DNA of 64,000 nt. It comes from Mobula hypostoma. Its lineage: Eukaryota. This document shows positions 17,753 to 58,800 of the stretch, piece by piece. The translations under genes and the position numbers were made by a program. The notes below the pieces were generated by a model. It was not told where the DNA came from. It searched no databases and worked only from the letters and a program-made list of their open reading frames with translations. The first letter of the stretch is position 1. Each line of letters begins with the position of its first letter. Location: NCBI RefSeq assembly GCF_963921235.1, contig NC_086097.1:31312001-31376000 (forward strand), given 5' to 3'.

Positions 17753-18581
17753 ACATAGAAAATAGGAAACATAGAAAATAGGTGCAGGAGTAGGCCATTC
17801 GGCCCTTCGAGCCTGCACCGCCATTTATTATGATCATGGCTGATCATCCAACTCAGAACCCCGCCCCAGCCTTCCCCCCATACCCCCTGACCCCCATAGC
17901 CACAAGGGCCATATCTAACTCCCTCTTAAATATAGCCAATGAACTGACCTCAACTGTTTCCTGTGGCAGAGAATTCCACAGATTCACCACACTCTGTGTG
18001 AAGAAGTTTTTCCTAATCTCGGTCCTAAAAGGCTTCCCCTTTATCCTCAAACTGTGGCCCCTCGTTCTGGACTTCCCCAACATCGGGAACAATCTTCCTG
18101 CATCTAGCCTCTCCAATCCCTTTAGGATTTTATACGTTTCAATCAGATCCCCCCTCAATCTTCTAAATTCCAATGAGTACAAGCCCAGTTCATCCAGTCT
18201 TTCTTCATATGAAAGTCCTGCCATCCCAGGAATCAATCTGGTGAACCTTCTTTGTACTCCCTCTATGGCAAGGATGTCTTTCCTCAGATTAGGGGACCAA
18301 AACTGCACACAATACTCCAGGTGTGGTCTCACCAAGGCCTTGTACAACTGCAGTAGTACCTCCCTGCTCCTGTACTCGAATCCTCTCGCTATAAATGCCA
18401 GCATACCATTCGCCTTTTTCACCGCCTGCTGTACCTGCATGCCCACTTTCAATGACTGGTGTATAATGACACCCAGGTCTCATTGCACCTCCCCTTTTCC
18501 TAATCGGCCACCATTCAGATAATAATCTGTTTTCCTATTTTTGCCACCAAAGTGGATAACTTCACATTTATCCACATTAAA
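17753..18581 (-). mobile_element. Young CR1, 5'-truncated
   Basis: ORF 17853-18452 is the CR1 ORF2 C-terminus; near-identical to 50392-51217; short flanking repeat GTTTT. Confidence 0.95.
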
Positions 18582-18606
18582 GTTTTCTATGTTTCTATGT
18601 TACAGT

Positions 18607-18786
18607 GGGGTGCATGGGAGGGGTAGCACCTCTAGATGGGGGGCTTGTCACACACCTTGGAATGTCTCGTCATCTATTGGTCCCCACCGACGCCCAGCTC
18701 TCACCTGTGGCTCCTCATAGCTGTTTGCATGCGACAGTGGCCACATCGGGCAACAGCTTCGACAAGCCAGCTAAACCAGGTGAGGG
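18607..18786 (+). ncRNA. Candidate HDV-like self-cleaving ribozyme at the RTE 5' end (P1 decayed)
   Basis: P1 GGGGTG 18607; P2 CTCTCACCTG 18698-18707 with CAGGTGAGGG 18777-18786; P3 GGC/GCC; L3 begins TCC; P1.1 GG 18748-18749; P4 GCTT/AAGC; catalytic-C candidate 18771 in GCTAAA. Confidence 0.65.
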
Positions 18787-20470
18787 TAGCCAACGGGTCT
18801 GAAACCCTTGGTGAGATAAGAATTTGCTCATCCCAGCATGCGAAGACTACTTCGGTGGATCGGGCGGAGGAAACCCTGGGGGTTCAACAGCTGAGAAGGC
18901 GTTGCAGCAGCGCATTGTGGAGTGTGCAGGGCACGGCAGAGCACTTAGACGCAGTCATCCAATGCAGCCAAGGAAGTTGCCAGAAGTAACGATTCTTCAT
19001 GCCACTGGATCCTGACTTCTGAGGCCGAGTGGGATCATCTCTGTGCAAGGCTTTTCCACTTCAATATCTTTCACACACTGGTTACATTGTGCGATGTTCA
19101 TCTCCCAACTTTCAATTCCAACCAGTCTTCTACAAGTCCTACGGCGATGGGGGAGTGGCGAAGCAACAGGTGGAGGTGACCACTGGGAGTTGTAGTCACA
19201 AACCCGCACGTAGGCTGCCTTTGGACAAGTGGTCGTTCTTCTCTGTACTCAGGGCAGCAGAGGGGTCCGGCAGCACCAATGGCGACTGAGCAGCCCTTTT
19301 CAGGACAGCACTGCTCACCCTTTGATAGGGAGGGGCCTAGAAAAGGTGGTTAATCATTGCCTGCCCTACAGACAGATAACTGGCCAGCTTGCTGCGGCTG
19401 GCAGTTCATCCGCCAATGCAGTTACACTCAAAAGAGAAGAAAGAAACTTCTGTTAGGATCATGGAATGTCCGCACACTCATAGACAGAGAGAACTCAGCA
19501 AGACCCCAAAGAAGAACAGCCCTTGTTGCCAAGGAACTTTCATGCTACAACATCGACATCTCAGTCTTAAGTGAAACCAGGCTTGCGGAGGAAGGATCCC
19601 TGACTGAAACCACCAGTGGCTACACTTTCTTTTGGAAAGGAAAAGCGCAAGATGAAGAGAGGATTCACGGAGTTGGATTTGCAGTCAAGTCCAGCTTCCT
19701 GAAACAACTCTCCGACCTGCCCGTGGGAATCAACGAAAGGCTTAGGGGGCTACATCTGCCCCTCAGCCACAAACGTCACGCAACAGTCATCAGCGCTTAT
19801 GCCCCCACCATGACCAGCAAATACGAGACCACTGAACAGTTCTACGCCGACCTTAGCTCTGTTCTGGGCTCAGTCCCTGTCAACGACAAACTAATCATGC
19901 TCGGTGACTTCAATGCCTGAGTAGGCTGCCACCATAGTCGCTGGGAAGGGGTTCTAGGCAAACATGGTATTGGAGATATGAACAGCAACGGCCTCTTGCT
20001 CCTTAGCAAATGTGCAGAATACAACCTCCTCATCACAAACACAGTGTTCAGGCTGGCGAACAAGTACAAGACAATATGGATGCACCCAAGATCCAAACAT
20101 TGGCACATGATCGACTACATTATATTACGTCGCCGAGACATCCGGGATGTCCTCATCACCAGAGCCATGCGAGGAACGGAGGGCTGGACTGACCATAGGC
20201 TTGTCCGCACCACAGTGAAGCTACATATTGCTCCCCACCATCCCAAGCACCCTAAGTTCATCAGAACAGCTTTTAACATCACCAGACTCCAAGAGCCACT
20301 GTATCTTCGCAAGTTCCAGACCACCCTTGATGAGAAGCTGTCTGCCAAAGGGCCACTAACTGGTGGGCCAACCCAGAAGTGGAATCAGTTTAGAGAGATG
20401 GTGACAGAGACAACAAAATCAGTTCTCGGCCCCAAGAACCGGAACCACCAAGATTGGTTTGACAGTGCCT

Positions 20471-21051
20471 CCTTTCAACACATGATAGCTTTCTCAACTT
20501 TACTGGCTAGGAGAACTATTCGATTGTACTGGAAGGATCCCAATCCACCTACTGTTTTTTTTTTTTGGCTCTTCTCCATTATGTCTTGTTTAAGTTTGGA
20601 GAAAATAAGGAGTCGGACGTTTGATACATCTTTTAAATTTGAGCAAACTTGGCGACCTTTTATTCAATATTTTCATATGATCTAATTCTTTTTACTATTC
20701 CAGTTAATTTTTTTTTCCGCGAAGTTTTAGATTTGATCAGAAGGATTTTCCCTTTTTTTTTTAAACTGTATCCTCAAAATGGACTGCCCAGTCCCTTTTT
20801 TTTGTTTTGGGTTAGTTTAGTGGGGTTTTTTTTCCTCAATAACAGGAACTCTTGAGTCTTTTTTTCTATGAACTGTTAAGAGGAAAAGTGGTTCTCTTGT
20901 CTCTTTATATTAGCTTAATACTATATATGATTTTGACAGTGTATATTCCTTTCTCTGTTTGTACTGTTATTGATATATGTATTTGAGATAACCTCTCCTC
21001 TGGTTTGTATTTATCCTTATTCTTTTAAATCAATAAAAAAAAGATTGAAAG
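20471..21051 (+). mobile_element. L1-clade LINE 3' end inserted into RTE-1
   Basis: IAFSTLLARRTIRLYWKDPNPPT..WL..IMSCLSLEKIR..TWRPFIQYF resembles a fish L1 ORF2 C-terminus; T-rich 3' UTR with AATAAA; flanked by TGACAGTGCCT. Confidence 0.85.
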
Positions 21052-24000
21052 GAGAATGACAGTGCCTTCAAAGATCTCCTGGCCAGGAAGAAAACAGCAT
21101 TCATGGAGTGGCAAAACGACCCAAGCTCCATTCCCAAAAAAGAGCGGTTCAAGTCCCTTCAGGCCCATACCCAACGGGAAATTCGCAAGATGCATGACCT
21201 GTGGTGGGATAGGAAAGCTGAAGAGGTGCAATGCTTCACCGACATCAACAACTCGAAGCTGCTCTTCAACTCCATCAAGATGATCTTCAGCCCCTCAAGA
21301 TCTGGCTCACCTCCACTGTTGTCCGCTAATGGAACCACACTGCTAAAGGACCAAGAGAGCATCCAACACAGATGGAAAGAGCATATCAGCCAGCTCCTGA
21401 ACCGCCCTTCATCGGTCAACCAGTCTGCTCTGGACCAAGTCCCCCAACAGCCTATTCACGAGGAACTAGATGATCCTCCCTCAACAGATGAAGTCAAGAA
21501 GGCTATCATGCAGATGAGCAATGGCAAGGCGCCCGGCAAGGATGGAATACCTGCTGAACTGTACAAGGCACTCAGCAAGGAATCACTTGAGGATTTCCAC
21601 AGCACACTGACTAGCATTTGGGAAGAAGAAGAGATGCCCCCTGACCTAAGAGATGCAACGATAATCGCCCTCTACCAAAATAAAGGTTCAAGGACCCACT
21701 GCGGGAACTACAGAGGCATCTCACTACTTTCCATTGCCGGAAAAATCCTCGCCCGCATCATCCTCAACAGACTGATTCCAACAGTGTCAAAACAGAACGT
21801 TCCTGAGTCGCAATGTGGCTTTCGTCCCGAACACAGCACTGTCAACATGATCTTCGCAGTGAGACAGATACAGGAGAAGTGCCTGGAACAGAACATGACA
21901 TTATATTCTGTCTTCATTGATTTGACGAAGGCATTTGACATGATCAACAGAAATGCGCTGTGGATCCTCAGAAAGCTTGGCTGCCCGCAGAAATTCACTA
22001 CACTCACCCGCCTGCTCCACGATGGCATGACAGGAGAAGTGTTCTCAGATGGTTCCCCATCTGAGACTTTCAACATCTCAAATAGCGTGAAGCAAGGGTG
22101 CGTTCTAGCACCAGTGCTCTTCAACCTCTTCTTCACCCAAGTGCTGAAGCATGCTGTTAAGGACCTAGACCTGGGTACTTACATAAGATATCGCCTAGAT
22201 GAATCAATGTTTGACCTGAGACGCCTTGCTGCAAAGACCAAAACATTGAGGAGGCTCATCACTGAAGCCCTGTTTGCTGATGACTGTGCCCTCATGGCCC
22301 ACCAGCAGAACCACCTGCAGACGATTGTTGACAAGTTCTCCGCAGCCTCAAAGCTGTTCAACCTGACATCAGCCTCGGTAAGACAGAAGTTCTCCTGCAA
22401 CCTGCACCAAACAGTCACCCTCGTCAGCCATGCATCACCATCGACGGCACTGTCCTGAAGAATGTGAAGAGCTTCAAGTATCTAGGAAGCACCATCTCCA
22501 GTGACGGATCCATTGACAAAGAGATCATAGCAAGGATCCAGAAAGCCAGCCAGGCACTCGGGAAACTCCGTGTCAAAGTTCTGGAGCACAAGGACATTCA
22601 GCTTTCAACCAAGCTCAAGGTGTACAAGGCTGTGGTCCTCACCTCTCTCCTGTACGGCTGTGAAACCTGGACCCTGTACTGCAGGCACATCAAACAGCTG
22701 GAGCAGTTTCACATGCACTCTCTGCGGTCAATCATGAGGATTTGATGGCAGGACCGAATCACCAACCAGGAAGTCCTTGACAAAGCTAACAGCATAAGCA
22801 TTGAGGCAAGGATCCTGCAGGCCCAGCTACACTGGACTGGCCATGTAATCCACATGGGTGAAACAAGGATCCCCAGGCAGCTGCTCTACGGTGAGCTTGA
22901 GCATGGCAGTCGCAATCAGGGACGCCCCAAAAAAAGATTCAAAGACAATCTGAAATCGTACATCAAATGGGCAGACCTCCAGCCTCGACAGCTTGAGGAG
23001 TCCGCCGCCAACAGGGCTGCGTGGCACGCCCTAACCAGAAAAGCTGCATCTGACTTTGAGGATGACCGAAATCAGCACCTTGCAGCAGCACGAGACCGAT
23101 GCCACAAAGCTGTGTATGCACCTGTTGTAATAGCCACCATTCCATGTCCAACCTGCAACCACACGTGTGCTTCGGCCTTCGGCCTCCGAAGCCACATGAA
23201 TATCCACAGATGGCTGCACAATATTCAGTCTTCCTCGGACCCTGAGAGACAACCACTACCATGTTATAGTAGATGGCACAAAGGGGATTAGGCAGAAAAC
23301 CAGGCCAGCATGGATTAGATGGGCCAAAGGACCTGCTTCTGTGACTATATCAGTCAACCTTTAGAAAAATAAACAGAGCAGGTGATGAAAGTGTCGACAT
23401 GGGAACACATTGGAACAATAACTAATTCCACAAATTTCAAGGTAGTTATGGAAAAGAATAAGATTGGTTCCCAAGTTAAGGACCTGAACTGGGGGAAGGC
23501 TGACTCCAACAACATAAGAGGGGACATGTGCAAGTAGGATGTGAGCAGATGCTCATGGGCCAAATGACAGCTGATAAGTGGGAGTCAGAAACAGTATGCT
23601 CTGGTTAAATGTGAAAGGCAAGTAGCAAGATCAGGGAACCTCTTAATTCAAAATATTGGTGAAATCAGAAAGTCACTTTGTCCAAGAGACACTTAAACAA
23701 GCAAGGCATGGAAGGATGCCGTGTTAATGCATGCAAATGGATATATCGTGGATGGGAGAAAGGTCCATGTTGCTGTGCCGTCTGACCCAGACTACTAATT
23801 CCTCCAGTATGCCTTCACTGCAGTACTTCAACACCACTGCACAGGGAGTAGAAGCTCACGTGCTCTTTGGCTGGAGCAGTGGAGGCAAGAGCCCATCCTG
23901 ACACCGAAAGGGGAAAAGCTGGGGCAGTAGTGGTGGCTCTTGCAGGGGTGGGCAGGTGTGTTATTGTGATGTTGGAGTCATGTCCTCCTGTCCAGTGGGG

Positions 24001-34414: not shown

Positions 34415-36257
34415 CAGACAAGACCTGAAAGGTTTTTCAAAAATTAAAGGGGAAAAGTCAGTCAAAGGTAGATATAGGACCAATACAAAATGACGCTGGA
34501 AATACTGTAATGGGAGATGCAGAGATGGCAGAGGAACTGAAAGCGTATTTTGCATCAGTCTTCACAGTGGAAGACGTCTGTGGTATACCGGCCATTCAAG
34601 AGTGTCAGGGAAGTGAACTTTGTGCAGTGAAAATTAAGACTGAGAAGGTGCTCAGGAAGCTTAATGGTCTGAGGGTGGACAAATCTCCTGGACCTGATGG
34701 AATGCACCCGCAGGTTCTGAAGGAAGTAGCTGGAGAGATTGCGGAGGCATTAACAATGATCTTTCAAGAATTGATAGATTCTGGCATTGTACCAGATGAC
34801 TGGAAAATTGCAATTACTCCGCTATTTAAGAAGGGTGGGAGGCAGCAGAAAGGAAACTATAGACCTGTTAGCGTGACATCAGTGGTTGGGAAGTTGTTGG
34901 AATCGATTGTTAGGGATGAGATTACGGAGTACCTGGAAGCACATGACAAGATAGGCCAAAGCCAGCATGGTTTCCTGAAAGGAAAATCCTGCCTGACAAA
35001 CCTATTACAATTCTTTGAGGAAATTACAAGCAAGGTAGACAAAGTGATGCAGTAGACATGATGTACTTGGATTTTCAGAAGGGCTTGGCAAGGTGCTGCA
35101 CATGAGGCTGCTTAGCAAGATAAGAGCCCATGGAATTACAGGGATGTTACTAGCATGGGTGGAGCATTGGCTGATTGGCAGAAAACAGAGTGGGAATAAA
35201 GAGATCCTATTCTGACTAGCTGCCAGTTACCAGAGGAGTTCCACAGGGGTCGGTGTTGGGACCGCTGCTTTTTACGATGTATGTCAATGATTTGGATTAC
35301 GGTATTAATGGATTTGTAGCTAAGTTTCCCAATGATACAAAGATAGGTGGAGGAGTGCATAGTGTTGAGGAAACAGAGAGCCTGCAGAGAGACTTAAGAT
35401 AGTTTAGGGGAATGGGCAAAGAGGTGGCAAACAAAATACAATGTTGGAAAGTGCATGGTCATGCACTTTGGTGGAAGAAATAAACGGGCAGACTTTTATT
35501 TAGATGGGGAGAGAATTGAAAATGTAGAGATGCGAAGGGACTTGGGAGTCTTTGTGCAAGATATCCTAAAGGTTAACCTCCAGGTTGAGTCGGTTGTGAA
35601 GAAGACGAATGCAAAGTTAGAATTCATCTCTAGAGGTAGAGAATATAAAAGCAGGGATGTGATGTTGAGGTTCTATAAGGCACTCATGACACCCACTTGA
35701 AGTACTGTGTGCAGTTTTGGGCCCCTTATTTTAGAAAGGATATACTGACATTGGAGAGGGTTCAGAGAAGATTCACAAGAATGATTCCAGGAATGAAAGG
35801 GTTACCATATGAGGAACGTCTGGCAACTCTTGGGCTGTATTCCCTGGAGTTCAGGAGAATGAGGGGGGATCTCATAGAAACATTCCGAATGTTAAAAGGC
35901 CTGAACAGATTAGATATGGCAAAGTTATTTCCCATGGTAGGGGATTCTACAACAAGAGGTCACGACTTCAGGATTGAAGGGCGTCCATTTAGAACTGAGA
36001 TGCGGAGAAATTATTTTAGTCAGAGGGTGGTAAATCTGTGGAATTTGTTGTCCCGAGCGGCTGTGGAGGCCAAGCCATTAGGTGTACTTAAGGCAGAGAT
36101 AAATAGGTTCTTGATTAGTCAGGGCATCAAAGGGTATAGGGTAAAGGCAGGGGAGTGGAGATGACTGAAAGAATTGGATCAGCCCATGATTGAATGGCGG
36201 AGCAGACTCAATGGGCCGAATGGCCCACTTCTGCTCCTATATCCTATGGTCTTATGG
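34415..36257 (+). mobile_element. CR1 LINE, 5'-truncated (RT to 3' UTR)
   Basis: ORFs 34510-35055 (KSPGPDG, NYRPVS, SQHGF), 35455-35700 and 35697-36164; tail TATGGTCTTATGG. Confidence 0.95.
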
Positions 36258-45696: not shown

Positions 45697-47895
45697 AACA
45701 TAAGAACATAAGAATAAGAGCAGGAGTAGGCTATCCGGCCCATCAAGCCTGCCCCGCCATTCAATAAGATCATGGCTGATCTGTCCGTAAACTCAGCTCC
45801 ATCTACCTGCCTTTTTCCCCATAACCCTTAATTCCCTTACTATGTAAAAACCTATCTAACTGTATCTTAAATATATTTAGTGAAGAAGCCTCAACTGCTT
45901 CCCTGGGCAGAGAATTCCACAGATTCACAACTCTCTGGGAAAAACAGTTTCCCCTCATCTCCATCCTAAATCTTCTCCCCTGAATCTTGAGGCAGTGTCC
46001 CCTGGTTCTAGTCTCACCTACCAATGGAAGCAACTTTCCTACTTCTATCTTATCTATCTCTTTCAAAATTTTGTATGTTTCTATAAGATTCCCTCTCGTT
46101 CTTCTGAACTCCAGAGGGTATAGTCCCAGGCGGCTCAATCACTCCTCATAGTTTAACCCCTTCATCCCTGGAATCAACCTGGTGAACCTCCTCTGCACTG
46201 CCTCCAAAGCCAGTATATCCTTCCTCAAGTATGGAGACCAGAACTGCACACAGTACTCCAGGTGCGGCCTTACCAGTACCCTGTATAGTTGCAGCATGAT
46301 CTCCCTGCTCTTGAATTCAATCCCTCGAGCAATGAAGGCCAACATTCTGTTTGCCTTCTTAATAACCTGTTGTACCTGCAAGCCAACCTTTTGCGATTTA
46401 TGCACAAGCACTCCCAAGTCCCTCTGCACAACAGCATGCTGCAATCTTTCACCAGTTAAATAATAATCCACTCTTCTATTATTCCTTTCAAAGTGGATAA
46501 TCTCGCATTTACCAATGTCGGCCCACTCACTTAATCTATCTATATCTCTCTGCAGACTCTCTACATCCCCTGTACAATTTGCTTTTCCACTCAGCTTCAT
46601 GTCATCGGCAAACTTTGCTATGCTACATTCAGTCCCCTCTTTCAAATCAATGTAAATGGTAAACAGCTGCGGGCCCAGCATCAGCCCCTGCGGAACCCCA
46701 CCCACCACTGACTGCCAACCGGAGAAACACCCATTTATACCAATTCTCTGCCAACTCTACCAACTCTATTCATGCATCCCTATCTTATTTATAAGTCTCT
46801 TGTGCGGCACATTATAGAACACCTTCTGGAAATCCAAGTTTACAACACCCACCTATTCCCCTCTCTGGAACTCATGTCCTCAAGGCACTCCAGTAAGTTT
46901 GTCAAACAGGACCTGCTCTTTCTGAATCCATGCTGCATTTGTCTAATGGAACCACTCCTTTCTAATCTTGGTTGGGGCAACTGTAACGAAAATCAATTTC
47001 CCTCGGGATCAATAAAGTATGACTATGACAATGACTATGACTATGACTAAATCAGTGGTTCCGCAACCTCCAGGCCGCGGACTGATACATTGCCGCGAAG
47101 AATGCAATGGTGCAGCAGTAGTCAGAACGTACCCAGCCCATCTTGAAGAAAAAAGCCGAAATAAGTAAGCTAATTAGATAGGTGCCGCCCAGCACGTAAA
47201 TGTCCACCCAGATCAGAGGTGACGCAATCAGCAATTGCCTCCAATCTGGGCCGACATTTACGTGCCGAGCAGTACCTAATTAATTAGCTTGCTTATTTCG
47301 GCTTTTCTCTTAAAGATGTGCTGGGTGCATTCTGGCTACCACTGTACCGCTGCATTCTTCGTGGCAATGTATCGGTCCGTGGCCCAGAGGTTGGGGACCA
47401 CTGTTCTAAATGTTTCGCTATTTCTTCCTTAATGACAGCTACAAGCATTTTCCCAACTACAGATGTTAAGCTAACTGGCCTATAGTTGCCCATCTTTTGC
47501 TTACATCCTTTTTTTAAAAGGTGGCGTGACATTTGCTGTCTTCCAGTCCGCTGGGACCTGCCCAGAGTCTAGAGAGTTTTGATAAATGATTACCAATGCG
47601 TCTACTATAACCTCCACCAATTCCCTCAGCACCCTGGGATGCATCCCATCAGGACCTGGAGACTTATCTGCCTTCAGGTCCTCTAGATTGCTCATCACTA
47701 TCTGTTTAGTGATAGTGATTTTATTGGGGTCCTCACCTCCCATTTCGTGTATACCATCCTTCTTTGGTATGTTAGACATGTCCTCCACCGTGAAGACCTA
47801 CACAAAATAGTTGTTCAATGCCTCAGCCATTTCCTTATCACCCAGTATCAATTTCCCCTTCTCGCCTTCCAAGAGACCTACATTGACTTTAGCCT
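45697..47895 (-). mobile_element. CR1 LINE, 5'-truncated, with nested inserts
   Basis: ORFs 47501-47788, 47293-47532, 46139-46708 (GVPQG, FADD) and 45803-46138. Confidence 0.95.
47053..47403. mobile_element. hAT-like fold-back MITE
   Basis: TIRs CAGTGGTTCCGCAACC and GGTTGGGGACCACTG; 8-bp site TTCTAAAT at 47404-47411 (left copy interrupted); arms complementary over about 170 bp. Confidence 0.88.
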
Positions 47896-49549
47896 TTAGC
47901 ATGCAAGTGGAGACGGTGAATAAAGTCGGTCTTTGATCCTTTGATAATAATACTTCGAACTTTCAACTTCTGAGTATAATCTTGTGGAAAAAACTACTTA
48001 GTGGCTGGAAAGTACTTAGTTATCTGCAACACTGACTGCTATACACAAAAAGTAATTCTCTTTCTGGCATTTACTCAGTGGTTCCAACTATTGGACCCTG
48101 ACTACTTTGCCTTGGATTGATTTCAATAGAATTAAAAGATAAATAGCCATCATCGCAGCGGCCATCATCGGAGTGTACATAGTCAGGAAGGTGATCTTGG
48201 GGCTTTAGCTTTCTGAGGTTTCCGGGAGGAGAGGCTTCAGTCAGAGAAAGCAAAGGAAAGAAAAGCTGAAGTTTTTTTCCTTTATATCTGCTCAGCTAGG
48301 ACAGTAGAAATGCCAGGCAGGATGGCAGGGAGACCTCCAGTGTCGCTGACGACTACAACTGCGAGAAGTGCATCCAGCTGCAGTTTCTAACAAACCACGT
48401 TAAGGAGTTGAGGCTGGAACTCGATGAATTCCGTACCATTCAGGAGGCTGAGGGGGTGAGAGATAGAACACATAGAGAGATAGTTACATCCAAGGTGCAG
48501 GACACAGAACTCCAGACAGAAATCTGGCACATCTGGAAATTGGATCCCCTGATGTGGCCTACAAATCACAATGGGAAATAGCAAATACATGCCAAAAGAG
48601 CACTGTTACAATAGTCATGGGAGGACCGATAGGTAGGTAGACCGGGAAAAATCAGGTTGGTGCTGGATTACAGGAGGGGTTATTTCTGGAGTGTCTATGA
48701 GATGGCTTTTTAGAGCAGCTTGCAGTTGAGCCAACTAGGGAATCAGCTATTTCTGGAAGCAATTTGGAAGGCACAGGATATATACATCACAAAGAGGAAG
48801 TAGTGTTCTAAAGGAAAGATGACACAACTGTAGCAAACAGGAGAAGTCAAAGCCAAAGAGAGGGCATATAATAGAGCAAAAATTAGTGGGAAGTTAGAGG
48901 ATTAGGACGCTTTTAAAAACCAACAGAAAGCAACTAAAAAAGTCATTAAGGAAAAAATGGAATACGAAAATAGCTAGCCAATAATATTAAAGAGGATACC
49001 AAAAGCTTCTTCAGATACATAACGTGTAAAAGAGAGGTGAGGGTGGATATCGGACCACTGGAAAACAATGTTGGAGATGGTAGTAATGGAGGGCAACAAA
49101 ATTGTGGACAAACTGAAGAAGTATTTTGCATCAGCCTTCACTGTGGAAGGCACGAGCAGTATGGTAGAAGTTCCAGATGTCAGGGGCATGATGTGTGTGA
49201 AGTTACCATAACTGGACAGAAGGTCCTTGGGCATAAAGGAAACTATAGGCCAGTTAGTCTGTTAATCTTATCTCAGAGGTTGGGAAGATTGGAGTCAACT
49301 ATTAAGGATGAGGTCTCAGGGTACTTGGAAGCACATGATAATAGGCCATAGTAAGCATGGTTTCCTCAAGGGAAAATCTTGCCTGATAAATCTATTGGAA
49401 TTCTTTGAAGAAATAACAAGCAGGATAGAGAAAGGAGAATCAGTTGTTGTGTATTTGAATTTTCAGAAGGCCTTTAACAAGGTGCTGCACACGAGGCCGC
49501 TTAAGAAGCTACAAGCTCATGGTATTACAGAAGAGATTCTAGCATGGAT

Positions 49550-49809
49550 TCCCTATGCGACTCCCTTGTCTATTTGTCCCCTCCCACTGATCTCCCTCCA
49601 TGTACTTATCCTTGCAAGTGGAACAAGTGCTACACCTGCCCCTACACCACCTCCTAAACTACAATTCAGGGCTTTGTGTTCCTTCTTCCCCTCCCTCCAC
49701 CTCTTTTTTTCTCTAGTCCTGATGAATGGTCTCGGCCCGAAATGTCGACTGTACTCTTTTTCACAGATGCTGACTGGCCTGCTGAGTTCCCCCGCATTCT
49801 GTGTGTGTT
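49550..49809 (+). mobile_element. Penelope fragment with hammerhead motif and 8-bp TSD
   Basis: TSD GCATGGAT at 49542-49549 and 49810-49817; AGTC-CTGATGA-ATGGTCTCGGCCC-GAAA-TGTC-GACT at 49715-49750. Confidence 0.88.
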
Positions 49810-50391
49810 GCATGGATAAAGCAGTGACTGACTGGCACCAGGCAAAGAGTGGGAATAAAGGGAGCCTTTTCTGACTGACTGTCAGTGACTAGTGGTGTTC
49901 CACAGGGGTCTGTGTTGGGGCCAATTCTTTTTTTTGTTATACGCCAATGACTTGGATGATGGAATTGGTGGCTTTGTTGCAAAGTTTGCAGACGATATGA
50001 AGACAGATGAAGGGGCAGGTAGCTCTGAGGAAGTAGAAAAGCTACAGAAGGACTTAGACAGATTAGGAGAATGAGCAAAGAAGGGGCAGGTGGAATACAG
50101 TGTCAGGAAGTGTATGTTCATGCACTTTGGTAGAAGAAATAAAAGGAGAGAAATGGAGAGAAAATACAAAAACCAGAGGCGCAAAGGGATTTCAGGGTCC
50201 TCGCGCAGGATTCCCTAAAGGTTAATTTGCAATTTGAATCTGTGGTAAGGAAGGCAAATGCAATGTTAGTATTCATTTCAAAAGGACTAAAATATAAAAC
50301 TAAGGATGTAATGTTGAAACTTTATAAAGCACTGGTGAGACCTCAGTTAGAATATTGTCAGCAGTTTTGGGCCCCTTATCTCAGAAAGGTT

Positions 50392-52244
50392 AGAAACATA
50401 GAAACATAGAAAATAGGTGCAGGAGTAGGCCATTCGGCCCTTCAAGCCTGCACCGCCATTTATTATGATCATGGCTGATCATCCAACTCAGAACCCTGCA
50501 CCAGCCTTCCCTCCATACCCTCTGATCCCCCTAGCCACAAGGGCCATATCTAACTCCCTCTTAAATATAACCAATGAACTGGCCTCAACTGTTTCCTGTG
50601 GCAGAGAATTCCACAGATTCACCACTCTCTGTGTGAAGAAGTTTTTCCTAATCTCAGTCCTAAAAGGCTTTGCCTTTATCCTCAAACCCTGACCCCTCGT
50701 TCTGGACTTCCCCAACATCGGGAACAATCTTCCTGCATCTGGCCTGTCCAATCCCTTTAGGATTTTATACGTTTCAATCAGATTCCCCCTCAATCTTCTA
50801 AATTCCAACGAGTACAAGCCTAGTTCATCCAGTCTTTCTTCATATGAAAGTCCTGCCATCCCAGGAATCAATCTGGTGAACCTTCTTTGTACTCCCTTTA
50901 TGGCAAGGATGTCTCTCCTCAGATTAGGGGACCAAAACTGCACACAATACTCCAGGTGTGGTCTCACCAAGGCCTTGTACAACTGCAGTAGTACCTCCCT
51001 GCTCCTGTACTCGAATCCTCTCGCTATAAATGCCAGCATACCATTCGCCTTTTTCACCGCCTGCTGTACCTGCATGCCCACTTTCAATGACTGGTGTATA
51101 ATGACACCCAGGTCTCATTGCACCTCCCCTTTTCCTAATCGGCCACCATTCAGATAATAATCTGTTTTCCTATTTTTGCCACCAAAGTGGATAACTTCAC
51201 ATTTATCCACATTAAATTGCATCTGCCATGAATTTGCCCACTCACCCAACCTATCCAAGTCACCCTGCATCCTCTTAGCATCCTCCTCACAGTTAACACT
51301 GCCACCCAGCTTCGTGTCATCCGCAAACTTGGAGATGCTGCATTTAATTCCCTCATCCAAGTCATTAATATATATTGTAAACAACTGGAGTCCCAGCACT
51401 GAGCCTTGCGGTACCCCACTAGTCACTGCCTGCCATTCTGAAAAGGTCCCGTTTATTCCCACTCTTTGCTTCCTGTCTGCTAACCAATTCTCTATCCACA
51501 TCAATACCTTACCCCCAATACCATGTGCTTTAAGTTTACACACTAATCTCCTGTGTGGGACCTTGTCAAAAGCCTTTTGAAAATCCAAATATACCACATC
51601 CACTGGTTCTCCCCTATCCACTCTACTAGTTACATCCTCAAAAAATTCTATGAGATTCCTCAGACATGATTTTCCTTTCACAAATCCATGCTGACTTTGT
51701 CCGATGATTTCACCGCTTTCCAAATGTGCTGTTATCACATCTTTGATAACTGACTCCAGCAGTTTCCCCACCACCGACGTTAGGCTAACCGGTCTATAAT
51801 TCCCCGGTTTCTCTCTCCCTCCTTTTTTAAAAAGTGGAGTTACGTTAGCCACCCTCCAATCCTCAGGAACTAGTCCAGAATCTGATGAGTTTTGAAAAAT
51901 TATCACTAATGCATCCACTATTTCTTGGGCTACTTCCTTAAGCACTCTGGGATGCAGACCATCTGGCCCTGGGGATTTATCTGCCTTTAATCCCTTCAAT
52001 TTACCTAACACCACTACCCTACTAACATGTATTTCACTCAGTTCCTCCATCTCACTGGACCCTCTGTCCCCTACTATTTCTGGAAGATTATTTATGTCCT
52101 CCTTAGTGAAGACAGAACCAAAGTAATTATTCAATTGATCTGCCATGTCCTTGCTCCCCATAATCAATTCACCTGTTTCTGTCTGTAGGGGACCTACATT
52201 TGTCTTTACCAGTCTTTTCCTTTTTACATACCTATAAAAGCTTT
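50392..52244 (-). mobile_element. Young CR1, 5'-truncated; RT frame intact except one stop
   Basis: ORFs 51115-52167 and 50488-51087 are in the same frame, separated by a single TGA; full RT motif set. Confidence 0.96.
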
Positions 52245-55435: not shown

Positions 55436-55832
55436 AGATAGATAGATACCTTATTGATCCCAAAGGGAGTTACAATGTCACAGTAGCATTACAAGTACAC
55501 AGATATACAAGTATACAAATACTAGAAGAGAAGTAAGAAAGAATAAAAAGTTAGTTACCTTAAACAGTTATCTTCAACACAAGAGGGTCACCATTTCCCC
55601 AGCTGTAGGTTGACTCATTATAAAGTCTCATGGCCGAGGGTGAGAACAACCTCATATAGAGCTCCTCAGATCAGTGCAGTTGTCTTTGTCTACTACTGAA
55701 AGTGCTCCCCTGTTCAGCCAAGGTGGCATGCAGAGGGCAAGAAACATTGTCCAGAATTGCCAGGATTTTCCATAGGATCCTTCGTTCTATCACATCACAG
55801 CCAGCCTTTATAATCAGTTTATTGAGCCTGTT

Positions 55833-58800
55833 CTCCTACAAAATCCTACCTTGGCGCTTCACAGTGGCGTAGGAATGATACTGGCTGAACATCAGCGAAG
55901 TACGGCGGAGATTCGTTCTCTGGCAGGTCTAACCTAGCGTGAAGGTGACGTTCTGTCGGCATCAGATTTGGAAGCCCAGAGAGACTGTATGGTGGGGGCA
56001 CGACACCATCTGTCTTATTACTGTGCAAGGCGTGTTGGAGTAGAGTTTCTGAATGGCGTGGAAAGCCCTGTGGCAATGGAGGCCATGTGAAGGCAGCAGG
56101 CTTGAGGAGCTGGAAGCTGCTAGCATGAACTCTGCACATAGGCGGCTCACATAAGATGGTCGCTGCCTTGTTGAGTTTTCTGAGCAACAACAGGGTTGAG
56201 GCAGCTACGTGAGTGTCCGGGCAGCCCTTTTTAGGAATAGCACTGCCCACCCTGGAAGGGGAAGCCACTAGAAAAGGTGGGGTAAAGAAAGCTTGCTCAG
56301 ATTTCACCTGGCTGGCTCACCGCAGCCAACGGGTCTTCACCACTGCGCTAAGAAGTTTAAGAAGATGAAATTGATTGTTGCCACATGGAATGTGCGAACA
56401 ATGCTGGATAACGACTCAAGACCGGAAAGGAGAACTGCTTTGACAGCTAAGGAATTGGCAAGATACAAGATTGATATTGCTGCATGCCAAGAGACAAGGA
56501 TTGAAGGACAAGGTCAGATCCAAGAAAATTCTCATACTTTCTTTTGGATTGGGAAAACCAACGAAAGGAGAGATGCAGGTGTAGCCTTTGCTATTTCCAA
56601 CAAGATTGCTAGTAAATCGCCAACACTTCTGATAGGGATATCTGAAAGGATCATGCAACTACGTGTTCCCATGGGAAAGAATCGTTTCCTGAGTTTGATC
56701 AATGCGTATGCACCAACCATGGCATATTCTGACGAAGACAAGAAGTCCTTCTATCAGGAACTGGCTGAAGTAACTGATAATATCCCTAGGGCAGACAAGT
56801 TGCTCATCTTGGGAGATTTCAATGCCAGGGTAGGCATGAATCACAGTACCTATGAAGGCGTCATTGGCAAATTTGGTCAAGGCAGAAAGAACACCAGTGG
56901 TGACCTTATGCTAAACTTCTGCGTTCAGAAGAAATTGGGTATTACCAACACTTTCTTTTGTCAACCCGAGAAGAACTACTTCACCTGGATGCACCCAAGG
57001 TCAAAGCATCTCTATTTGCTTGACTACGTTGTGATTCGCACAGCAGATATGCCGGAGGTTCTATCGACATAAGGAATGCATGGAGCAGAGTGCTCACTTG
57101 ATCATTACATGGTACGATCACAACTTAGACTTAAACTGCTGCTGCCAAGGCGAAAAACACCCAGTGCAGCACCCAAGAAGTTGGATGTCAACAAGTTGAC
57201 CAGTGAGGAATATCAGAGGAGACTTGTCACAGCATTGACATTATCTCTCCAAGAAGACAAAGACCCTCTCAATGACCCAACCAATACTGAAGAATGCTGG
57301 AAGCAGCTCAAGAAAACCATCCATTCAACTGCAAGTGCGGTGTTTGGTCACCCTAAGAGTAAAACTCCTGATTGGTTTCAAGAACAGAATGATTCAATTC
57401 CAGAACTGTTGGAGATGAAACAAAGGCTTTATATGTGTCACTTGAAAGAGAACTCTGAAAGAAGCAAAGCAGCATTTAAGGCCGTGAAAGCCAAAGTTCA
57501 AAGGGAGATCAGGGCTATGAAGACCAACTGGTGGAATAAGAAAGCAGAAGAACTGCAAACAATGTCAGACAGGAATGACTACCATGGGCTCTTCTCAGGA
57601 CTGAAAGCTACCTATGGTCCAAGAAGCAATACAGTGACCCCAGTAAAAACTGCAAATGGGAGCAATCTATGCATTGACAGGAAAGACATCATTGAGCGAT
57701 GGAAAGAACACTTCTGTAACCTTATAAACCAACAAGGTGCGGCTGACCTCAATGCATGTAAAAGGCTCACAACTAGACTGGTAAGAGAAGAGCGATGTGG
57801 ACTCATCACTATGACAGAACTTAATAAGGCTTTAGAAGATACCAGAAGTGGTAAAGCACCCGGGCAAGACGGCATTCCATCAGATGTACTGAAGCAAGGT
57901 GGTCCTGCTCTGAAGACTGAACTGTTAAACTTATATAATGCTTGTTGGCAGAGTTGATATCTCCCTCAGGACTTCAAAGATGCGCTGATAGTCACCATCT
58001 ACAAGAAGAAAGGCGACTGTAGTGTTTGTGGAAACCACTGAGGAATCTCCCTTCTGTCCACAGCTGGGAAGATTATGGCGAAGATACTGCTCAGCCGGCT
58101 CAAGATCATCTCAGAAGATGTGCTTCCTGAAAGCCAATGTGGCTTTAGGGCTGGAAGAGCAACCACTGACATGATTTTTACTTTGAGGCAACTCCAGGAG
58201 AAGGCGGTAGAACAGCAGCAACCATTGTACATTGTCTTTGTTGATTTCTCAAAAGCATTTGATATGGTGGACAGAGAAACACTCTGGGAAGTGCACAAAA
58301 CTTATGGCTGTCCAGATAGGCTGGTTACGATGATCAAGTTGTTTCATGAGAACATATCTGGCAAAGTATCTATTGGAGGAGATGTCAGCGAAGACTTCAC
58401 CATCAACCACGGGGTAAAACAGGAAGCGTTCCTGCTCCAACTTTGTTTACACTATATCTTGCTGCAGTTTTGGAAATAATGGACCATAATTTGGACAAAG
58501 GTGTGTACATCAGGACTCGCTGAGATGGAAAATTGTTCAACCTGTCAAGACTCAAAGCCTCAACCAAATCAAGAGAGAGATGCGTCAGAGAACTTTTGTA
58601 TTTAGACGACTCAGCCCTGGTTGCTACTGATGTTAATGTGATTCAAGAAATTGTAGACCGCTTCTCATTTGTTGCCGCTCTTTCTGGCCTAAGAATCAAT
58701 GTCTCCAAAACCGAACTTCTGTACCAGTCTCCTCCTCTGTGTAGTCCGAGTGAGACCAAACCACCAGTCATATCGATCAATGGGGTAGTGCTGAAATATT

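Follow-up and report, generated by a model that had tools for sequence, protein, structure and literature searches.

A conserved, covarying RNA leader directly ahead of the open reading frame of RTE-like retrotransposons, a candidate element for translation without AUG

In the intergenic region (IGR) internal ribosome entry site (IRES) of dicistroviruses, pseudoknot I is described as mimicking the tRNA-mRNA helix and putting a non-AUG codon in the A site (PMC3894237, PMC4132737). A 2013 review only speculated on IGR-type IRESs in elements without long terminal repeats (non-LTR elements), whose open reading frame (ORF) definitions would then need revisiting (PMC3894237). How single-ORF long interspersed nuclear elements (LINEs) without a start codon produce their protein is the open question addressed here, by way of an RNA element directly ahead of the ORF of two LINEs, RTE-1 and RTE-2. 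Both lie in a 64,000-nt stretch of the Mobula hypostoma genome, called the window (contig NC_086097.1, positions 31,312,001 to 31,376,000 of the forward strand; coordinates below count from its first letter).

Other structured leaders have been described in retrotransposons themselves. Ribozymes resembling that of hepatitis delta virus (HDV-like) occur in some RTE elements, R2, baggins and L1Tc, and the account cited proposes an IRES-like role for these pseudoknotted leaders, behind which the ORF may lack an AUG (PMC6765202). In the RTE-clade element Perere-3 of Schistosoma, variants of the twister ribozyme are reported at the 5' end, next to target-site duplications, and their cleavage allowed translation of a downstream reporter (PMC8501958). 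R2 is described as carrying protein-bound RNA modules, a 3' untranslated region (UTR) pseudoknot and a 5' RNA (PMC12222951, PMC6765202). According to another source, RTE-9_CPB, Nimb-17_LMi, I-3_DR and mollusc 'LP-SINEs' have a common 70-bp 5' head, read there as a promoter (PMC4758252), and in SART1 the coupling of ORF1 to ORF2 is ascribed to UAAUG and a downstream RNA structure (PMC3894237).

In the window, Pfam identified two LINE copies in which an apurinic/apyrimidinic endonuclease (EN) domain, Exo_endo_phos, is followed by reverse transcriptase (RT), RVT_1, in a single ORF. EN starts near 19450 in RTE-1 and near 56380 in RTE-2, and inspection of the open reading frames found no ORF1-sized frame in the leader. 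By their single ORF, N-terminal EN followed by RT and lack of ORF1 these are RTE-like LINEs; the clade name is that of the first-pass annotation of this DNA, and an Atlas look-up of the RT returned generic RT clusters only. That annotation had flagged 116 nt (19287-19402) as a fold conserved with covariation in both copies and as a possible non-AUG translation-initiation element. These 116 nt form the 3' portion of a ~330-nt structured RNA leader of a widespread RTE-like LINE lineage. Its predicted parts, with the number of base pairs changed on both sides among families, are as follows.

19134..19286, + strand: upstream half of the leader, starting at AAGTCCTACGGCGATGGG; two covarying irregular hairpin domains, ~19136-19215 and 19217-19285
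19287..19317, + strand: stem 1, 7 bp, 19287-93 with 19311-17; 17-nt loop
19318..19330, + strand: hairpin H2, CCCT/AGGG with loop TTGAT; 3 of 4 pairs changed on both sides
19333..19352, + strand: hairpin H4, overlooked by the first-pass annotation and found by RNAalifold; family form GGGCC/GGCCT; 3 of 5 pairs changed on both sides
19379..19405, + strand: hairpin H5, the third hairpin of the first-pass annotation, extended to 9 pairs; 7 of 9 changed on both sides
19391..19422, + strand: putative pseudoknot PK2, H5 loop GCTGC 19391-95 with GCAGT 19418-22; 2 of 5 pairs changed on both sides
19406..19417, + strand: spacer from H5 to the PK2 3' strand, 10-15 nt among families
19423..19464, + strand: first coding-constrained stretch; TAC 19423-25, a basic stretch and the Trp codon 19462-64 of the EN motif WNVRT
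56198..56367, + strand: the element of RTE-2; stem 1 56218-24/56243-49, H2 56250-53/56258-61, H4 loop 56269-78
56308-56332 and 56345-49, + strand: the element of RTE-2, continued; H5 and PK2 3' strand; covariance model score 134.9 bits

The sequences compared came from the host genome (eukaryotic, 3.48 Gb) and from metagenome contigs. A DNA search of the host genome with RTE-1 gave 40 scored matches from 326 candidates, and one with RTE-2 recovered its own family of 18 loci together with a third family, RTE-3, at 68-75% identity. Metagenome contigs were searched with a pattern of three conserved blocks, fixing AGCCCT, CACTGC and TAGAAAAGGTGG; 104 stretches matched, representing 84 distinct 170-nt cores. 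A shorter pattern had 198 exact matches in the host genome, against 1 for the reversed control, with at least two additional families among them. An AP-endonuclease domain was found in all three of the metagenome downstream ORFs tested. Between families the EN proteins are 45-56% identical over 100 residues and the 67-nt RNA core is 67-80% identical. The comparison set consisted of 37 representatives, namely 7 host-genome copies and the 30 metagenome copies left after removal of those more than 93% alike, aligned with MAFFT without regard to structure; 40 pairs were counted, and partners slid by 1-3 columns served as controls. The 30 rows found by pattern are invariant by construction in the AGCCCT, CACTGC and TAGAAAAGGTGG columns.

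Standard pairs fill 94.3% of the cells in the 37 representatives, as against 36.9-56.4% in the slid controls, and both-sided changes occur at 18 of the 40 pairs, as against 2-7. The covariation score is 0.285, compared with at most 0.098 after sliding, and was reached by none of 500 shuffles. The three host-genome families on their own show both-sided changes at 7 pairs (0-2 in slid controls). Over the whole leader, RNAalifold predicted 68 pairs from 25 sequences, 35 of them with compensatory double changes. Judged by this comparison, the four nested helices (stem 1, H2, H4 and H5) and the two upstream hairpin domains are held by compensatory changes across families. The homology of RTE-1, RTE-2 and metagenome copies extends upstream to ~19134, and the window coordinates given for the upstream domain borders are by-eye readings of the alignment. 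When all columns were scanned blindly for more covariation, with a partner for the variable loop position among the targets, nothing but noise emerged, apart from a hint that the column of the bulged G19383 may pair in an alternative H5 register. A covariance model built from the element has two matches in the window, RTE-1 and RTE-2.

LINE 5' UTRs often contain internal promoters, and a peptide-like frame, ..EQPF..GPRKGG.., runs through the element in both RTE-1 and RTE-2. Conservation could in principle reflect such a signal in the DNA itself, whether internal promoter or enhancer, selection on a short peptide, or recent ancestry, without any RNA function. Compensatory double changes at 18 of 40 pairs, however, are not expected from DNA signals or drift, and the proteins of these families are far more diverged than the RNA core. 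The peptide was rejected as a candidate on its own account: within the element every frame of RTE-3 is closed by stops, and a 1-nt indel in a loop throws the peptide out of frame. An explanation without RNA function thus seems most improbable to us, and the covariation appears largely to have refuted it already.

The pairings listed by the first-pass annotation stand, namely TGAGCAG 19287-19293 with CTGCTCA 19311-19317, CCCT 19318-21 with AGGG 19327-30 and GCCAGC 19383-88 with GCTGGC 19397-402, and all three helices covary (3 of 7, 3 of 4 and 7 of 9 pairs changed on both sides). Its statement that one fold is common to both copies is likewise borne out by a homologous element in RTE-2 at 56198-56340. 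The two UTRs are not otherwise dissimilar, as had been thought: the window copies align over ~370 nt, with homology at least 150 nt farther upstream. In outline, a conserved covarying RNA structure in divergent RTE families, directly ahead of an ORF without an in-frame AUG, is therefore supported.

In stem 1 the both-sided changes are UA/CG/GC, GC/AU and AU/GC; its four inner pairs are invariant, in columns mostly fixed by the search pattern. H2 occurs as CCCT/AGGG, CCTC/GAGG, CTCC/GGAG, CCCC/GGGG and CCTT/AAGG. In H4, GG..CC is replaced by CC..GG in RTE-2 and GC by AU in many sequences; the window copy of RTE-1 has a 1-nt deletion that leaves G.U pairs. The 10-nt H4 loop TAGAAAAGGT (19338-19347) is invariant as UAGAAAAGGU, also in all three host-genome families, which were found by similarity and not by pattern. 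H5 pairs 19380-82 and 19384-88 with 19397-19404, with G19383 bulged and 19389-96 as the loop. Compared with its family, the window copy of RTE-2 carries decay mutations at A56249, A56267, A56324 and C56348.

The pseudoknot that the first-pass annotation drew between the loop of stem 1 and what is now the H4 loop did not fare as well. CCTTTTCAGG (19295-19304) is indeed complementary to CCTAGAAAAGG (19336-19346) with one A bulged. None of its 7 pairs covaries, however, the middle pair is open in 18 of 36 sequences, and one family, with CCUCUCU, has two mismatches to the H4 loop. In the pairing of CCUUUUC with GAAAAGG, the middle position may be any base opposite a constant A, and the sole tolerated change is U/C opposite G. 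An AGG/CCU extension of the pseudoknot competes with two invariant H4 pairs. Since the search pattern fixed the columns of the 3' strand and of the inner stem 1 pairs, their invariance is uninformative. The stem 1 loop varies only at four positions, N-U-U-Y, and CCU 19295-97 with AGG 19302-04 could form a 3-bp mini-hairpin within it; such a local CCU-N4-AGG mini-hairpin would account for this variation equally well. There may be a short, interrupted contact between the two loops, with an invariant 3' partner.

A second pseudoknot, PK2, is suggested by the alignment, in which the H5 loop would pair with GCGGT 10-15 nt downstream as an H-type pseudoknot; it is supported, less strongly than the hairpins. 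Its usual form is ACCGC with GCGGT, and GCCGC with GCGGT in the RTE-1 family; 95-97% of its cells are paired in the 37 representatives. Both-sided changes give ACUGC/GCAGU in a family of a dozen copies and AUCGC/GCGAU in a single copy (L107). Even at positions where a codon could change synonymously, GCGGT is retained (T in 35 and C in 35 of 37). An apparent GCTGC/GCAGT covariation in another locus (L078) was dropped as the product of a deletion.

The 3' strand of PK2 also marks a change in the constraint on the sequence. GCGGT ends 33-69 nt before the Trp codon of WNVRT, and in 36 of 37 sequences this interval is divisible by 3. Downstream of GCGGT there are 3 stops in the EN frame versus 19 and 13 in the other frames; upstream of it there are 12 versus 18 and 16. 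The spacer is free of coding constraint, because its length varies from 10 to 15 nt through all residue classes (12 nt in 14 sequences, 11 in 11, 13 in 7, 10 in 2, 14 in 2 and 15 in 1, of 37). Modulo 3, the interval between the H4 loop and PK2 takes the values 0, 1 and 2 in 10, 15 and 12 sequences, and the EN frame relative to the element is 0, 1 or 2 in 30, 19 and 22 of 71 copies. Because whole-codon indels and avoidance of EN-frame stops are found only from GCGGT onward, coding appears to begin at, or a few nucleotides from, the 3' strand of PK2, without an AUG or a consistent near-cognate codon. The codons at this boundary are NGC, GGT and then CGA, CAA, AAG or TAC, with no consistent near-cognate start among them; the codon directly 3' of PK2 is TAC 19423 in the window copy and CGA in 19 of 37.

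The first-pass annotation had placed TAA 19351-53 and TTG 19357-59 in the EN frame of RTE-1, with no in-frame ATG before the EN motifs, and this is confirmed. An in-frame ATG is likewise missing from the majority sequence of RTE-1, built from 29 copies, and from that of RTE-3, built from 12. A normal in-frame ATG in the RTE-1 family consensus would have refuted the first-pass proposal, which thus survives this check of its own. Between the last in-frame stop and EN, an in-frame ATG is present in 6 of 60 distinct copies, three of which are RTE-2. As a conserved start, TTG 19357 did not hold up: the frame from there to EN differs among families and the stretch behaves as non-coding, with coding constraint starting ~65 nt 3' of it, at PK2.

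Ordinary scanning, shunting or reinitiation after short upstream ORFs would offer a conventional route, with near-cognate or AUG starts specific to each family and the structure tuning efficiency. Candidate starts exist in TTG 19357 of RTE-1, which comes soon after the in-frame TAA, in the ATG of RTE-2 and, for some families, in an ATG within the H2 loop. In 25 of 37 sequences the EN frame stays open far upstream of GCGGT, with in-frame ATGs there in some families, but it is no more open than the other frames (25, 20 and 25 of 37, with the 12, 18 and 16 upstream stops given above). Among close subfamilies whose ORFs are long and intact, this region varies in length by 1 nt (distances 125, 126 and 127), and in one multi-copy family only 5 codons, none a good near-cognate start, separate an in-frame TAG from the GCAGU codons. 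The upstream ORFs vary as well, RTE-1 having one of 33 codons in the +1 frame relative to EN and RTE-2 only ATG-TGA. In the upstream domain, a conserved GCGATGGG has its ATG (19147-19149) in good start context, and this too speaks for scanning; it lies inside a helix and is kept in 22 of 25 aligned leaders, and opens frames of 10 codons in the window copy and ~26-31 in metagenome copies. On balance, conventional initiation strikes us as unlikely to be the explanation.

Four other routes to the ORF were considered and rejected. Frameshifting by -1 at H5/PK2 has no slippery heptamer at the right distance, and the upstream frame is +1 in RTE-1, -1 in RTE-2 and 0 in RTE-3. An antizyme-like +1 frameshift at AGA-TAA 19374-79, before H5, fits RTE-1 alone and not the other families. 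Splicing of an upstream ATG onto the ORF would need AG before CGGT, where most families have TG (alignment read by eye). The NUG before CGGT is in the -1 frame relative to EN, which is open in only 27 of 37 sequences; its T and G are explained by the PK2 pairing.

The element is not at the 5' end of these LINEs. At least 10 of 29 RTE-1 loci are similar from 18598-18608 onward, a start ~680 nt ahead of stem 1, and RTE-2 and RTE-3 copies also run upstream of the structured element. In RTE-3 (L049:1043-1509; L050-L060) a variable number of ~51-bp tandem repeats, reminiscent of LINE promoter monomers, lies directly upstream. Metagenome loci (L113, L129 and L161 among others) have a conserved TATA-like CCACT(N)TAAT ~90-110 nt upstream of AAGTCCTGCGGCGATGGG, with more conserved sequence nearby, and this region may be a promoter or transcription start of the metagenome elements.

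Searches for known RNAs were negative. No Rfam model matched the element at gathering score in the 64-kb window. With E up to 10, none matched 19100-19500 or 56000-56400, HDV-like, twister, hammerhead and IRES models included, and with E up to 1 none matched 16 related loci. ARAGORN found no tRNA or tmRNA gene in 18500-19600.

A self-cleaving ribozyme (HDV-like, twister-like or new), combining RNA processing with promotion of translation as proposed for R2 and L1Tc, would have precedents in the ribozymes of RTE and related elements introduced above, and the layout of stem 1, its loop and the downstream strand superficially recalls HDV P1/P2. The HDV fold is a nested double pseudoknot, with the P3 hairpin and L3 between the 5' strand of P2 and the 3' strand of P1. 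Where P3/L3 would be needed there are only 9-11 nt (AGGACAGCA in RTE-1), and the would-be P2 covaries at 0 of 7 pairs. The conserved twister L4 motif GUCCCAAGC and the L1/L2 motifs, as listed in Table 1 of the source, are absent from the alignment of 37 (PMC8501958). No ribozyme model matches, even at the permissive thresholds, and, unlike LINEs that terminate at a ribozyme, the genomic copies continue past the structured element, to ~680 nt upstream in RTE-1 and into the upstream monomers in RTE-3. The uncapped, ribozyme-cleaved RNA suggested by the first-pass annotation is thus not upheld, and a ribozyme in the leader is highly unlikely.

The reading that we favour, at about even odds, is that the leader serves translation start, in an IRES-like manner and without AUG. 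In this proposal the leader would recruit or position ribosomes internally, allowing translation of EN-RT without an AUG. A narrower version, drawn by analogy with the IGR IRES, is rather doubtful: here initiation would be factor-sparing and methionine-independent, and the H5-loop pseudoknot would mimic a codon-anticodon helix and set the EN-RT frame. H5/PK2 would then be the counterpart of dicistrovirus pseudoknot I, the codon directly 3' of PK2 would be decoded first, and the upstream helices and the invariant H4 loop would hold the ribosome.

Several observations weigh against a role in initiation, or against the strength of its support. The RTE-1 sequence alone has a minimum free energy (MFE) of -52.8 kcal/mol, z = -0.08 relative to dinucleotide shuffles; because it folds no better than shuffles, support must come from comparison. 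In that comparison many sequences are decayed copies and not active elements, and the pattern-fixed columns give no information. Independent PK2 events are few, being one multi-copy family, L107 and the window copy, and in the window copy, which is decaying, T19393 and A19420 are both transitions of the CpG type that may have arisen by chance. Each varying PK2 pair is broken in 1-3 of 36-37 scored sequences. The codon boundary exactly after GCGGT counts as a single, inherited observation whose prior probability is one in three. RTE-2 has an ATG at 56365-67, 12 codons past GCGGT and 7 before the EN motif, and keeps the whole structure all the same; in some other families an in-frame ATG precedes the element or falls within it (L073/L094 at -56, L061 at -13). 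The structure is therefore not tied to AUG-less ORFs alone. No match to the Rfam cripavirus-IRES model was obtained, so homology to a viral IRES is not detectable, and the TATA-like motifs and upstream tandem monomers point to normal capped transcripts, which would not strictly require an IRES.

Alternatively, the folded leader may act, as in R2, as a binding platform for the EN-RT protein or host factors, the AUG-less start being a separate matter. Such a platform might serve ribonucleoprotein (RNP) assembly, cis-preference or the handling of the RNA 5' end late in target-primed reverse transcription. Covariation shows selection at the RNA level and not its purpose, RTE-2 keeps the fold despite its ATG, and an invariant 10-nt loop resembles a sequence-specific protein contact. 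Engineered RTE-1_MD templates are reported with their cognate 5' and 3' UTRs, and changes to the UTRs altered efficiency (PMC13708176). A binding platform nevertheless leaves unexplained why coding constraint starts at the PK2 3' strand and how the AUG-less ORF is translated. We regard it as a possible but not a probable account of the leader, and one that is not mutually exclusive with a role in translation start.

Compared with the described systems, the leader resembles the dicistrovirus IGR IRES in being a compact multi-helix RNA directly before an ORF that would start without AUG, and in a putative H-type pseudoknot with its 3' strand next to the codon where constraint begins, the identity of that codon being variable. 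It differs in having no Rfam similarity, another helix layout and greater length (~330 nt), in belonging to a cellular retrotransposon and not a viral intergenic region, and in that RTE-2 uses a downstream ATG. With the HDV-like ribozymes it has in common a structured leader with a pseudoknot, putative in our case, an ORF that may lack an AUG and a proposed IRES-like role, but it has no P3/L3/P1.1 core or model match, is not 5'-terminal and gives no sign of cleavage. Like the Perere-3 twister variants, as far as their description goes, it is a conserved fold upstream of an RTE-clade EN-RT ORF; unlike them, it lies hundreds of nucleotides inside the element and has none of the twister core motifs.

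Similar limits apply to the remaining parallels. The R2 modules are likewise structured RNA of a single-ORF non-LTR element near an ORF boundary, but of another clade and another fold. The 70-bp head is, by its published description, another leader segment conserved across very different LINE families and phyla, an RTE included; it lies at the very 5' end, and the comparison with our leader is by description only, not by sequence. SART1 also has structure near the unconventional start of an RT-bearing ORF, and the upstream open frame of RTE-2 overlaps its ATG as ATGA. The elements studied here have no ORF1, however, and neither the overlap nor the upstream frame is constant from family to family.

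A full-text literature search turned up neither this fold nor any IRES reported for RTE elements; Repbase/Dfam annotations, patents and subscription journals were outside its scope. The leader is a concrete candidate for how single-ORF LINEs could be translated, since it covaries across many families and sources and has a defined candidate pseudoknot at the coding boundary. In the narrower, IGR-like version it would be a counterpart, outside viruses, to the dicistrovirus intergenic IRES, though unrelated in fold. If it does initiate translation, eukaryotes would have a new class of start signal that depends on neither cap nor AUG, and RTE ORF annotation would change. It would then also be relevant to RNA-based gene-insertion tools, some of which are described as already carrying RTE UTRs (PMC13708176). 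Even if its role is in RNP assembly, the ~330-nt fold is an uncatalogued RNA family without an Rfam match, in hundreds of copies.

Further features of the window were recorded. RVT_1 ORF fragments of other retroelements were identified by Pfam at 51115-52242 (-), 49266-49874 (+), 46139-46756 (-) and 34429-35055 (+), and the covariance model found no structured element in these four. Upstream of RTE-1, long open frames at 17794-18522 (+) and 17853-18479 (-) occupy both strands of one stretch, and the + frame has no Pfam match. The window copy of RTE-2 lacks ~300 bp present in most other RTE-2 copies, between the segments 55830-55953 and 55959 onward. The RTE-1 copy contains a 588-bp AT- and T-rich insertion (20464-21051), absent from most other of the 29 RTE-1 loci, and most loci resume similarity past it, at ~21052. 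At 22746-23291, the C-terminal part of the RTE-1 ORF ends in a CxxC...HxxxH zinc-finger-like motif (CPTCNHTCASAFGLRSHMNIH), and a similar motif is found at a metagenome locus (L092). A second RTE-1 copy (L002, G000:C1:25769223-25769423) lies 5.5 Mb off; across the 201-nt query it matches the window copy at 99% identity and has in common with it a private 1-nt deletion at 19350, which suggests that the two are a duplicated segment or very recent sister insertions.

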